Below, in pieces: positions 13,528 to 16,106 of a DNA stretch of 41,190 nucleotides. The DNA is from an uncultured Candidatus Peribacteria bacterium (GTDB lineage Bacteria; Patescibacteriota; Gracilibacteria; Absconditabacterales; Absconditicoccaceae). Below the pieces are notes generated by a model. It saw nothing but the letters and a program-made list of their open reading frames with translations. It was not told where the DNA came from and searched no databases. The stretch spans positions 1-41,190 of the forward strand of contig CAYXTU010000001.1 in assembly GCA_964468245.1 (NCBI GenBank), given 5' to 3'. Position 1 is the first letter of the stretch, and the number at the start of each line of letters is the position of its first letter. Made by a program: the position numbers and the translations under genes.

Positions 13528-13707
13528 TTACAATAGTCCATTTTTAATAAGATCCAGATTTATTTCTTTCATTAGGTCTTCTTGCTTATCTCTTATAAAT
13601 TTTGAAATTTCATCTGAATGTTTTTTGTTGTTTTCAATGATTTCAATGTTTTTTGGATCGCTGAAAAACTCTGAGACTGATTGAGGTGTTGTTTTCTTTT
13701 CCATCAT
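13528..13707 (-). CDS. small hypothetical protein (59 aa)
   Basis: ATG ATG at 13707, TAA 13530..13528. MMEKKTTPQSVSEFFSDPKNIEIIENNKKHSDEISKFIRDKQEDLMKEINLDLIKNGLL. Starts 25 nt after the third proS-end relic. Confidence 0.45.
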   Translation of the reverse strand: MMEKKTTPQSVSEFFSDPKNIEIIENNKKHSDEISKFIRDKQEDLMKEINLDLIKNGLL

Positions 13708-13732
13708 GTATGGGGGTATATAATAAAATCTT

Positions 13733-13771
13733 TTAGTAACGTAGAAATAATATTTTTTTGCTTAAATTACC
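13733..13771 (-). pseudogene. third, most decayed relic of the proS 3' end
   Basis: Minus strand reads GGT AAT TTA AGC AAA AAA ATA TTA TTT CTA CGT TAC TAA (…SKKILFLRY*). Compare the real proS end …[11 protein letters not shown]. It is followed by the same gttactaaaag… downstream sequence and overlaps the GNAT stop codon. Confidence 0.55.
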
Positions 13772-14208
13772 TTTAATTTGTATAAGTACATTAGGTTGTT
13801 TTTATTTTCCTTTCCGTACGGTTCTTTTATTTTTTTTGTTAGTTTAAATCATAATTTTTTGTGGAGATTGTTTGATTCTATGTATTCTGGTCATACTAGG
13901 GCATGAATATCTTTTTTTATTTTTTTGGCTTCATGTATGACTTTTTGATATAACATTTTTCAAATATGTTGTCCTCTATACCTTGGATCTACAACTATAT
14001 CCGTTACATATATCGTATCGTTTTTCCCAATAAAACTAACTATTGCACCGATTAGTTTGGTTTGATCTTTTGCAACAAAAACGAATCAATAATTAATAAA
14101 TGCTGAGTTTTCATATACATTTCCTACATATTTTTCGTTTCGAATTTTTTTTTCAAGGTCTATGATAGCAAAATTGTCTTGTATCTTGGCTTTGCTTATA
14201 GTAATCAT
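13762..14208 (-). CDS. GNAT-family N-acetyltransferase (148 aa)
   Basis: Frame checked; 4 in-frame TGA. Acetyl-CoA motif A reads IVVDPRYRGQHI-G-KMLYQKVIHEAKK. C-terminal part reads LHKKL-G-FKL. Confidence 0.7.
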
Positions 14209-14233
14209 AGAATGTATTGAATAATTAAAACTT

Positions 14234-14283
14234 TTAGTAACTTCTTACAAATAAGACTCTTCTTTCGCTTTGTCTACCAGTAA
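14234..14283 (-). pseudogene. second relic of the proS 3' end
   Basis: Minus strand reads …ACT GGT AGA CAA AGC GAA AGA AGA GTC TTA TTT GTA AGA AGT TAC TAA (TGRQSERRVLFVRSY*). The ~25 nt after its stop match those after the real proS stop. The GNAT ATG follows 25 nt later. Confidence 0.75.
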
Positions 14284-14296
14284 TAATTTAAAAAAT

Positions 14297-14548
14297 TTAA
14301 TGTTGGAAGTCTTTTGGTCTAAATTTATTTAATTCTGCTCGATCTATTTTTCCTCTTTCTAAAATAGCTTCTTTAGCTTCTTCTTTGAGTTCTCTTCGCT
14401 CTTCTCTTTTTTCTTCTGAGCTATAATTAACACAATGAAATTTGGGTATTGTTTTTCCAGAAAGAATATCTTCTACTTCTTGTGCTGCATCTCTATATGT
14501 TTTTGTTGTTTTGTTTTGTATTCCTTCTTCAAAATCTAACTCTTCCAT
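14297..14548 (-). CDS. small acidic hypothetical protein (83 aa)
   Basis: ATG 14548, TAA 14299..14297, no TGA. MEELDFEEGIQNKTTKTYRDAAQEVEDILSGKTIPKFHCVNYSSEEKREERRELKEEAKEAILERGKIDRAELNKFRPKDFQH. Starts 28 nt after the proS stop. Confidence 0.5.
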   Translation of the reverse strand: MEELDFEEGIQNKTTKTYRDAAQEVEDILSGKTIPKFHCVNYSSEEKREERRELKEEAKEAILERGKIDRAELNKFRPKDFQH

Positions 14549-14576
14549 GGTATATATAGTAAATAATTAAAAATTT

Positions 14577-16106
14577 TTAGTAACTTCTTGCAAACAAGAC
14601 TCTTTTTGTACTTGGCTTACCACTGTAGATACAAACTCACTTCCCGCCTTGCGGGATTTCGCTATCGCTTCAGCTCTTTTCTTCATCAAACGGTAAACAT
14701 CTGACGGTAGCGGCTGTTTCTTCCTTGATTTTGTCTGCTGTTTCTACGGTACCATCTCGGTGTGCCATGACAAATCCTTGTTGGATTTTTTCTTTGAATT
14801 CGTCGTAGGTGTCTACAACAAATGTGTGTGTTTCTCTATATTCTGCATTTTTTCTTAACAAATTATTTTGTGCTTTGTAGAGATATTGGTCGATATGAAG
14901 TTCTACATCTCAAATACTTACTGATGCTTTTTCTCCAGATTCTCTCTTGAAGACTTCTACCATACCACTTGCGATATCTCTTGCTCCGACAGTAATTCTG
15001 ACAGGTACGCCTTTGAGTTCGTATTCGTTGAATTTTCGTCCAGCAGATTTGTTGCTGTCTTCGTCAATCTTTCGTTTCAATGGAATGGTTTCGTGAAAAT
15101 ATTTGGATTTGAAGTCGAGTCTAGTGGTCTCCATCCTTTCGATGAGTGGCTGAATGTATTCTTTGATCTGAGAAAGTTCTTCTGGTGTTTTGAAAATAGG
15201 GACGATAACTACGTGGACAGGAGCGAGTGCTGGAGGCAAAATCAATCCGTTGTCATCTGAATGTGCCATAATCAATCATCCGATAAGTCTTGTAGATACT
15301 CATCGAGATGTTGCATATACATATTCTAATTCGTTCTTTTCGTTGGTGAATTTGACATCAAATGCTTTGGCAAAATTTTGTCCAAGGTTGTGACTTGTTC
15401 ACGCTTGGAGTGCTTTTCCGTCTTGCATCATAGGTTCGAATGTATAGGTTGCTACGGCTCCTGCGAATTTGTCGTGTTCTGGTTTGGTTCCCAATCTAGG
15501 TGAGATAGCCATGAAGTTGGTACAGAAATCGTTGTAGACGTCGAGCATTTTTCTTGCTTCATCGTCGGCTTCTTGTGCGCTTGCGTGCGCTGTATGTCCT
15601 TCTTGTCGCAAAAATTCTGCGCTTCTCAAAAATAATCTTGTCCTCATTTCTCGTCTCACTACGTTTGCTCGTTGATTGATAAGCAATGGTAAATCACGAT
15701 ACGAGTGAATCCAATCTTTGTAACTATTCCAAATAATTGTTTCTGATGTTGGTCTCACGATCAATTCTTCTTCAAGTTTGGCTTCAGGATCGACTACGAT
15801 TCCTTTTCCGTTTGGATCGTTCATAAGTCTATAATGTGTGACTATCGCACATTCTTTGGCGAAATGTTCTACGTGAGAAGCCTCTTTATTCAAAAAAGAT
15901 TTTGGGATAAATATAGGAAAATATGCATTGACGTGTCCGGTGTTTTTGAACATTCTGTCTAATACATCTCTGATGTTTTCTCGAAGTGCGAATCCGTAGG
16001 GTTTGATTACCATACATCATCTTACTGCTGAATTTTCTGCAAGTTCTCCTGCGAGTTGATTGTATCGTTCGCTGTAATCTTGTGCTCTAGTGGTTAATTT
16101 TGCCAT
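14577..16106 (-). CDS. proS: prolyl-tRNA synthetase, archaeal/eukaryote-like type (509 aa)
   Basis: Pieces 15399..16013, 14910..15275 and 14670..14861 share one frame; gaps checked and contain only [41 protein letters not shown]…, …[18 protein letters not shown]…, …[18 protein letters not shown]…. Ends …[42 protein letters not shown] then TAA 14579..14577, the canonical C-terminal Tyr. Confidence 0.95.

Follow-up and report, generated by a model that had tools for sequence, protein, structure and literature searches.

The window analysed here, a stretch of 41,190 nt from an uncultured Candidatus Peribacteria bacterium (GenBank assembly GCA_964468245.1, contig CAYXTU010000001.1), carries three copies of the coding end of proS, the gene for prolyl-tRNA synthetase: the live end and two relics behind it, each followed by one small gene of the same orientation. 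All three copies lie on the minus strand and comprise the final ~15-16 proS codons, the stop codon and a leader of ~20 nt. We tentatively read these ends as the scars of at least two successive duplicative single-gene insertions, which would most likely have come about by host recombination acting on DNA of related strains. An earlier note on this DNA had located the three ends and the three open reading frames (ORFs) behind them, and every position that it gave for them held.

The copies were compared by repeat search and by local alignment, with 1988 control tiles of 80 nt drawn from both strands elsewhere in the window. In the repeat search, 14227-14279 matched 14570-14622 at 81% over 53 nt, and 14212-14235 matched 14554-14577 at 83% over 24 nt. 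When aligned locally, the live copy and relic 2 scored 66, against 32 for the best control. Relic 3 scored 31 against the live copy, a value reached by one of the 1988 tiles, and 35 against relic 2, which none of them reached; 21 nt around its stop were 90% identical in the repeat search, and it carries one 3-nt indel and one 1-2-nt indel. Relic 3 is a real copy, though a decayed and weak one. The earlier note had taken the repeats for true relics of the proS coding end that lose similarity with distance from the gene, and both points are confirmed by the score of relic 2, twice that of the best control, and by the drop from 66 for relic 2 to 31 for relic 3. Relic 2 differs from the live end by ~10 substitutions over 16 codons, 8 of them amino-acid changing, and such mostly non-synonymous change fits decay. 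The live C-terminus (...KRVLFARSY before the stop) is intact and conserved.

The resemblance continues beyond the coding sequence. About 17-20 nt 3' of each stop are conserved among the three copies, as had also been noted before, and no such conservation of the leader behind the proS stop was present in any of the 16 relatives examined. The 21-nt stop-plus-leader motif had no further match in the window at up to three mismatches, which speaks against a common promoter or terminator. The distance from stop to ATG is 28 nt between the live copy and orf83, 25 nt between relic 2 and the GNAT gene, and 25 nt between relic 3 and orf59. Relic 2 begins directly after a 14-nt tail of orf83 and ends 5-10 nt short of the GNAT ATG. 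The left edge of the repeat falls at one proS position (TGGTA / GGTAA) in relics 2 and 3, and the GNAT ORF has no stop codon of its own and now terminates inside relic 3. The equal edge and the ending of the GNAT ORF within the relic fit units that were joined at a defined homology block.

The proS array is known from one metagenome assembly. The live copy and relic 2 have no exact run in common that exceeds 15 nt, and runs of this length or less lie below the usual assembler k-mers; furthermore, the duplications at typA and ftsK described below each occur in two independent assemblies (L107/L108 and L110/L111; L numbers, from L003 to L118, denote the related loci and contigs used for comparison). 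Both facts make an assembly artefact unlikely.

Two additional candidates for relics were rejected. The region beside the terminator (13440-13535), considered as a fourth, original proS relic, gave an alignment score of 14, well within the controls, and the 3' end of orf83 gave a score of 19, which was matched by 129 of the 1988 tiles.

Two smaller observations concern the same ends. The 20 nt 3' of the orf83 stop (TAAATTTTTTAAATTATTAC, 14279-14299) are similar to the 21 nt 3' of the proS stop (TAAAAATTTTTAATTATTTAC, 14559-14579), and the motif TTTTWAATTATT occurs at those two sites only in the window; this is marginal, with two matches obtained in 4 of 100 shuffles. The live proS end also contains a small palindrome (14588-14601, TCTTG-TTTG-CAAGA) that relic 2 keeps at 14245-14258 with both arms altered (TCTTA-TTTG-TAAGA). 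An Ala that is invariant in 16 of 16 relatives is replaced by one of these two changes. With only a single pair of changes, its retention may be due to chance.

Table. Positions of the duplicated ends, genes and terminators between typA and proS in the window.
Feature	Position	Strand	Description
typA/BipA	10418-12229	+	Pfam GTP_EFTU, EFG_C, BipA_C; convergent to proS
Live typA 3' end	12145-12231	+	repeat partner of 13340-13426
Terminator-like hairpin in the KilA-N unit	12374-12394	+	terminator scan; now serves live typA
KilA-N domain gene	12402-13226	-	274 aa, between both typA ends; Pfam KilA-N, E = 1e-16
typA 3' end relic	13340-13426	+	87 nt at 94% to 12145-12231; joined to native terminator
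Bidirectional intrinsic terminator (predicted)	13424-13447	.	AAAAAAGCCC-TTTC-GGGCTTTTTT; terminator scan
orf59	13528-13707	-	59 aa; innermost gene; host-like codon usage
Relic 3	13720-13771	-	SKKILFLRY-TAA (13733-13771) plus leader; shortest, oldest and most decayed
GNAT N-acetyltransferase	13762-14208	-	148 aa, second unit; Pfam Acetyltransf_1 (E = 1e-14), _7, _10
Relic 2	14212-14283	-	TGRQSERRVLFVRSY-TAA (14234-14283) plus leader; repeat search, local alignment
orf83	14297-14548	-	83 aa, Lys/Glu-rich ORFan; unit nearest proS
Live copy (H)	14554-14622	-	final ~15 proS codons, TAA 14577-14579, ~20-nt leader ahead of orf83
proS	14577-16106	-	509 aa (code 25), archaeal/eukaryote-type prolyl-tRNA synthetase; stop 14577-14579

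Duplicated ends at typA and at other loci

A duplicated end of typA, missed by the earlier note, was found 1.2 kb from the proS scars. The two typA copies differ at five positions, all of them synonymous or stop-to-stop. The distal copy is directly joined to the terminator AAAAAAGCCCGAAAGGGCTTTTTT, a hairpin that L086, L081 and L003, which have no KilA-N gene, carry behind their live typA stop. Because the native terminator is attached to the distal copy, this copy is the displaced native end of typA. The live copy is followed by cargo DNA; the KilA-N cargo has been inserted between the body of typA and its old end. The same junction with a typA relic occurs in L107 and L108, two independent assemblies of another lineage, in which the live and relic ends are 81% alike and the relic, when translated, could still pass for the C-terminus of typA. 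The exclusively synonymous differences in the window, together with the open frame of the L107 relic at 19% divergence, fit ends that once worked in different strains, gene conversion being an alternative source of the synonymous-only differences. In two further lineages, L118 and L106, the KilA-N gene stands at the typA locus without any relic.

The KilA-N protein matched PDC-S22 of PADLOC over its full length (E = 2e-123), a candidate single-gene phage-defence family. More than 8000 homologues at 60-82% identity were found across bacterial phyla, with one match labelled Methanosarcina, and homologues also occur in phages, phage satellites and plasmids. The KilA-N domain is present in the abortive-infection protein BstA as well (PMC8585504). 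Between the window and L118 the KilA-N ORF is 95% identical, compared with 84% for the adjacent typA. When window positions 12374-13273 were compared with L118 in 100-nt steps, the KilA-N ORF reached 91-99%, and typA with the DNA behind its stop 72-91%; the edges of the high-identity block were sharp and fell at the borders of the KilA-N ORF, not within typA. Judged by this contrast in identity and by these edges, the KilA-N ORF clearly appears to have been exchanged recently, as a single gene, between lineages. The L118 contig ends before it reaches the proS side.

Inside the KilA-N ORF lies a perfect 32-nt palindrome (TTTTAAACTGGTCGAA/TTCGACCAGTTTAAAA, 12998-13029) that is 100% conserved in L118. 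The bstA locus has a DNA self-immunity element overlapping the bstA start (PMC8585504), a role that the palindrome might conceivably share.

Duplicated ends were also found in other genomes. In L110 (420-680) and L111 (234-490), the end of ftsK (...AKPRDIFL before the stop) and its leader occur twice, as a 38-nt block of which 15 nt match exactly, and the copies flank a 60-aa ORF directly upstream of a GNAT homologue. The fine structure of this locus, from a code-25, SR1-like genome, matches the series proS-orf83-relic-GNAT: end and leader, small ORF, end and leader again, then GNAT. In L113, from a metagenome-assembled genome (MAG) of Absconditabacteria, a KilA-N homologue (69% identical) lies between 60-nt direct repeats of 87% identity (3913-3972 and 4897-4956), which consist of promoter-like intergenic DNA. 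The direct repeats of L005 (1213-1296 and 2810-2892; ~82-84 nt, 78 of 85 aligned positions identical) flank two genes and take in the final 22 nt of a 226-aa gene plus 60 nt downstream. Genes other than proS with duplicated 3' ends, which the earlier note had proposed to look for, therefore exist in the form of typA in the window and ftsK in L110/L111. At the same time, proS can no longer be regarded as the special site that it had seemed, since the same scar occurs at typA, at ftsK and around the KilA-N gene in the intergenic DNA of L113.

The duplicated blocks differ in sequence, and their lengths run from 38 nt (ftsK) through 60 nt (L113), ~72 nt (proS) and 82 nt (L005) to 87 nt (typA). This variation from locus to locus favours a sequence-independent process, based on homology or repair, over a single site-specific enzyme. 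A scan for gene-end duplications with a score of at least 40 returned 10 of 250 genes of SR1-like loci downstream and 2 of 250 upstream, compared with 2 of 699 genes of Bacteroidota loci, in a set that is partly biased, the window and L107/L108 having been picked for the feature and several matches being intergenic or simple repeats. The excess of gene-end duplicates in SR1-like loci is only suggestive.

Cargo genes, spacer and neighbouring genes

The window has a G+C content of 34%, and its ORFs are open only when TGA is read as glycine, under the code 25 that SR1/Absconditabacteria and Gracilibacteria use. The proS product matched Pfam tRNA-synt_2b, HGTP_anticodon and ProRS-C_1, the last of these up to the final residue, and its best relatives are proteins of SR1/Absconditabacteria MAGs with 77-92% identity, which have the C-terminus in common. 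Convergent proS and typA are neighbours in many related loci as well.

The three genes behind proS have little in common. For orf83, the in-frame codon usage score was 0.27; known genes cut into chunks gave 0.21 +/- 0.08 in frame, and out-of-frame chunks gave -0.34. Among 5.8 billion proteins no homologue was found except orf83 itself, and there was no match in Pfam, PADLOC or NCBIfam. Homologues of the GNAT protein form three clusters with 61-68% identity, all in code-25 contigs and each directly behind a housekeeping gene, the neighbours being a Mur ligase gene (L109, L112) or ftsK with the 60-aa ORF (L110, L111). Homology among these GNAT loci is confined to the ORF, and in the window it ends at ...AAATTAAAG, exactly where relic 3 starts. 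Eight remote homologues of orf59, of 49-74 aa and with E values down to 4e-7, have the motif FFxDPKNIEIIExNK in common, and one of them lies behind ruvA in another code-25 contig; orf59 is probably the oldest resident of the spacer. An exact-protein look-up found neither orf83 nor orf59 on record, and no contig of the same species was found. The host-like codon usage of the cassette ORFs points to SR1-like donors. Tandem duplication and divergence of one gene was considered as their origin and rejected: orf83, GNAT, orf59, proS and KilA-N are mutually dissimilar at the DNA and protein levels (z -1.5 to 1.5).

All three cassette genes lie on the proS strand. The promoter scan, with a model that may not fit SR1, gave no promoter-like site upstream of orf83, GNAT or orf59, and the terminator scan gave no terminator-like site between proS and the strong bidirectional hairpin at 13424-13447. 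As no terminator-like site separates them, proS, orf83, GNAT and orf59 look like one transcription unit ending at this hairpin, and the inserted genes are presumably transcribed by read-through from proS as far as the old bidirectional terminator.

For comparison, 13 SR1-like genome loci and ~20 metagenome contigs with a proS end were examined. The spacer between proS and typA ranges from ~10 nt (L085) to four genes, and it holds 0-4 different genes in L003, L004, L081, L085, L086, L098, L100, L106 and the window. The commonest spacer gene encodes a free-standing 205-aa histidine phosphatase (His_Phos) and stands right behind proS in relatives; other cargo, over ~15 related loci in all, includes a cyclodipeptide-synthase fusion, HD, YgjV and DHH proteins and a DEAD helicase. 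Cargo turnover in the relatives has mostly taken place without duplication. With different cargo in ~15 related loci and mostly no duplication, the gene contents mark the proS-typA spacer as a general hot spot of gene gain and recombination in the SR1 lineage. At ~25 related proS loci we found no relic proS end, none of the cassettes of the window and no integrase. The idea of the earlier note that the units are elements mobile as such found no support: neither relic nor cassette recurs at these ~25 loci, orf83 has no homologue, no viral contig carries the repeat, and most cargo turnover in the relatives leaves no duplication.

A metagenome search with a degenerate proS-end pattern returned 25 contigs, most of them with an ordinary proS end. 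Two of them, L093 and L101, matched by chance, within an unrelated gene that runs on the opposite strand. A separate candidate relic in L032 (score 35) lies at the start of an unrelated ORF and was judged to be chance. Directly behind proS in L098 (1508-2842), a cyclodipeptide synthase is fused to a solute-binding domain. Cyclodipeptide synthases use aminoacyl-tRNAs, which makes this position beside a tRNA synthetase gene notable.

Elsewhere in the window, a unit of ~22 nt (CGATAAAATGATAAATGCT...) occurs in tandem at 16110-16158, 21956-22109, 6679-6727 and 41115-41190. The tandem units stand directly upstream of three start codons on the minus strand, those of proS, of ileS (5-6 copies) and of a gene for an MFS-type transporter, the last identified by reading its sequence, and the unit recurs at the end of the window. 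It may be a promoter-proximal regulatory repeat common to the two aminoacyl-tRNA synthetase genes. The ileS gene (17815-21951, minus strand; 1378 aa) has NUDIX (residues 253-294) and histidine-phosphatase (668-733) domains inserted in the synthetase, and both insertions are present in the L106 orthologue too. At 2032-3972 on the plus strand lies a defence-type gene for an OLD-family ATPase with a TOPRIM nuclease domain (AAA_15/AAA_21 and OLD-like_TOPRIM).

Origin of the duplicated ends

Neither the 41-kb window nor the proS flanks of the relatives yielded an integrase, recombinase or transposase; in the window this check consisted of Pfam searches with the cassette proteins and the ORFs of unclear function, the remaining large ORFs being identified by reading their sequence. 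The earlier statement that the units carry no integrase holds accordingly, and it extends to recombinases in the window as a whole. The same searches revealed no IntI gene beside the array, and DNA folding of the three copies on both strands gave no attC-like fold (z -0.81 to +1.17 against shuffles). ARAGORN detected no tRNA or tmRNA gene in the window, and Rfam gave no match up to the family gathering score at 11500-16800. With respect to a dif site or terminus, the cumulative GC skew climbs across the whole window with no switch at 12-15 kb, and the typA block is purely coding. Two scans for viral contigs with the proS-end block, as expected of a phage attP, found none. The unit edges have no terminal inverted repeats except one weak AT-rich pair with 71% complementarity, and the target duplications, at 38-87 nt, are variable, unlike the short fixed type left by transposons. 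Remnants of ICEs (integrative and conjugative elements) or IMEs (integrative and mobilizable elements) were absent from the units, which hold one ORF each. A ComEC-type competence gene is present in an Absconditabacteria relative.

In the history that we tentatively favour, single small genes would have been inserted directly behind the proS stop, where the essential genes proS and typA converge on their common spacer. The oldest resident would be orf59, followed by the GNAT unit as the first insertion and orf83 as a later one; new insertions pushing older ends outward, as the earlier note had proposed, make the simplest history. Every insertion would leave two copies of a junction segment of ~70-75 bp (~16 codons, the stop and a short leader), of which the copy joined to proS would be kept by selection while the displaced one decays; the incoming DNA may have brought a replacement end, as the earlier note had supposed, or the end already in place may have been doubled. 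Such a duplication could arise if a fragment with a homologous gene end became circular and integrated by a single crossover (Campbell-type, 'ends-in'), whereby the homology is duplicated, or if homologous recombination took place on one side only and the other end was joined illegitimately. Once flanked by blocks, a unit could exit and re-enter by the same route, which would account for the constant block edge, and no unit would need to encode a dedicated recombinase. Host recombination is favoured by the varying blocks, by the absence of an integrase at related loci, by the single-gene exchange seen here and by the synonymous-only differences at typA.

Several facts weigh against this history. 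The proS array was found in one genome only, RecA acts poorly on homology as short and diverged as that of the blocks (38-87 nt, 80-94% identity), and the first H-cargo-H unit at each locus, with H for the end block, would still require an illegitimate event. The mostly non-synonymous changes of relic 2 are unlike those of a recently working foreign end and give it a decayed rather than a foreign look. The inserts amount to nearly one ORF each, from at most ~10 nt before the ATG to 14 nt past the stop, which is tidier than plain recombination explains and may point to some process of greater specificity or to strong selection in favour of compactness. Finally, within this genome the search for recombinases covered the 41-kb window only.

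Among the alternatives, an integrase acting in trans is rather unlikely. The proS-end block would then be its attachment site, the units would be integrase-less satellites or stumps like those of cis-mobilizable elements (CIMEs) that accreted in tandem, and the gene for the enzyme would lie in another part of the genome, on a phage or on an ICE. The common left edge of relics 2 and 3 suits this explanation, as do the KilA-N cargo, known from phages and phage satellites, and the block lengths, since 40-90 nt falls within the range of att identity segments. However, no integrase was found in the window or beside proS and typA in ~25 related loci, the same loci have no relic ends, and no viral contig carries the block; moreover, proS, typA, ftsK and the intergenic site of L113 would each demand a different specificity, and units of 343 and ~510 bp without leftover element DNA would have to have decayed very tidily twice. 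An unlikely course of events is that of one-off illegitimate rearrangements with no cassette behaviour, in which the relic ends were passengers at the edges of imported fragments. Linear DNA can integrate by one homologous and one illegitimate join (homology-facilitated illegitimate recombination, PMC3240628), here with the anchor on the far side. Most cargo changes at the locus indeed leave no scar, and 13340-14283 is bounded by a typA end and a proS end, like a whole spacer copied from another strain. Random joins would hardly give the same edge to 1-2 nt in two proS events, though, and they leave unaccounted for that the scar lies in every case on the side that keeps the gene intact and that ftsK and proS agree in the fine structure of their scars.

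It is quite doubtful that cassettes were captured by long staggered cuts at the stop-codon junction followed by fill-in, which would produce a target duplication of 40-90 bp with both copies native; that the ORF-sized DNA came from short-leader transcripts is pure speculation, and the window holds no reverse transcriptase. This model accommodates the inserts of nearly one ORF each, the same edge in two proS events and the inclusion in the block of the next gene's leader, which is absent from relatives and so apparently native to the lineage. It also suits the typA ends, which are 94% alike in the window; the typA end of L118 is only 81% identical to the window relic over 85 nt, so the live end was apparently not imported with the cargo. 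On the other hand, the window offers no candidate enzyme, block length varies from 38 to 87 nt among loci, L118 and L106 have the KilA-N gene at the same locus without duplication, and synonymous-only typA differences are unexpected for an unconstrained copy, barring gene conversion. As a general process of code-25 bacteria of the candidate phyla radiation (CPR; SR1/Absconditabacteria), capturing cassettes behind the stop codons of highly expressed essential genes without an element-encoded integrase and with 40-90 bp duplicated, it is likewise a long shot. If true, it would stack promoterless, ORF-sized genes expressed by read-through, an integron analogue on coding ends instead of attC, and would be a main route of gene gain in streamlined code-25 CPR genomes.

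That the array is no such feature at all but the product of chance, of a shared regulatory motif, of a chimeric strain assembly or of tandem gene duplication with divergence is highly improbable. The AT-rich DNA, the weakness of relic 3, the metagenome assembly and the recurrence of the leader-like motif TTTTWAATTATT after the orf83 stop could be cited in its favour. They are outweighed by relic 2, which has twice the best control score and keeps frame and stop, by the confinement of the 21-nt stop-plus-leader motif to the array within the window, by exact runs of no more than 15 nt between copies, by the repetition of the typA and ftsK cases in independent assemblies and by the dissimilarity of the cassette ORFs to one another and to proS (z -1.5 to 1.5).

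CPR bacteria have tiny genomes with few recognisable mobile elements, and their route of gene gain is poorly understood. The locus is a readable record of stepwise single-gene gain beside two essential genes, including an exchanged candidate phage-defence gene. If such scars are common, they would provide a simple sequence signature with which recent gene gains can be found and ordered. They could then also indicate a recombination route that has been overlooked, in which the cargo brings short homology with it, or a recombinase not yet known. Should they be rare accidents, the locus would remain a clear case of a hot spot for insertions between two essential genes that converge.

Comparison with known systems

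In E. coli, phage 21 and e14 integrate into icd, bringing a substitute 3' end that keeps the gene functional and leaves the old end as a relic. These are integrase-encoding, prophage-type elements of many kb and single insertions, which sets them apart from the proS array. The resemblance to integrons that the earlier note had drawn holds for the layout: co-oriented, mostly single-ORF and apparently promoterless units are stacked downstream of a transcribed gene, the newest of them closest to the presumed promoter. It does not hold for the machinery, as there is no attC fold and no intI was seen; the repeat is a copy of a coding end, and only two or three units are present.

The claim that no described system has this architecture was too strong in view of CIMEs and their accretion (PMC5704250) and of tycheposons (bioRxiv 10.1101/2020.12.28.424599). 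Duplicated 3' ends of protein genes around integrated DNA, and tandem arrays flanked by att sites without an integrase, were already known, and CIMEs accrete in tandem at the 3' ends of housekeeping genes of Firmicutes, for example the ICESt1-related elements at fda (PMC5704250). Like the proS array, CIMEs consist of integrase-less, repeat-flanked units built up by repeated integration at the gene's own copy with the target left intact. They are, however, several kb long and derive by decay from ICEs or IMEs, and their kinship with integrase-bearing elements that occupy this site in other strains is still recognisable, whereas the units here span 0.34-1.2 kb, each with a single gene and no trace of an element, and no integrase-bearing relative was found at ~25 loci. 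Tycheposon arrays in the genomic islands of Prochlorococcus contain partial tRNA copies, with older elements pushed inward (bioRxiv 10.1101/2020.12.28.424599). They resemble the proS array in that a streamlined genome without classical mobile elements has received successive integrations that left partial target copies and brought defence cargo. In contrast, tycheposons target tRNA genes, employ tyrosine recombinases and form circles shown by PCR, while the array described here has protein-coding ends as targets, in a window with no tRNA gene and no recombinase seen.

The minimal mobile elements of Neisseria (Saunders & Snyder 2002) are defined, as cited in PMC3787668, as whole-gene cassettes that differ among close relatives between fixed flanks, lack mobility genes and are exchanged by homologous recombination after uptake of DNA. 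The proS-typA spacer is similar in holding variable genes between fixed flanks without mobility genes. A double crossover in the flanks leaves no duplicated ends, however, and the scars seen here need an additional or different step.

The array is not a member of any of these families, as a recombinase, an attC fold, a tRNA target and element remnants were each looked for in the window and found absent. It is unusual in its combination of single-ORF units of 0.34-0.5 kb, the coding ends of two essential genes as repeats, the lack of an integrase at ~25 loci and a CPR host.

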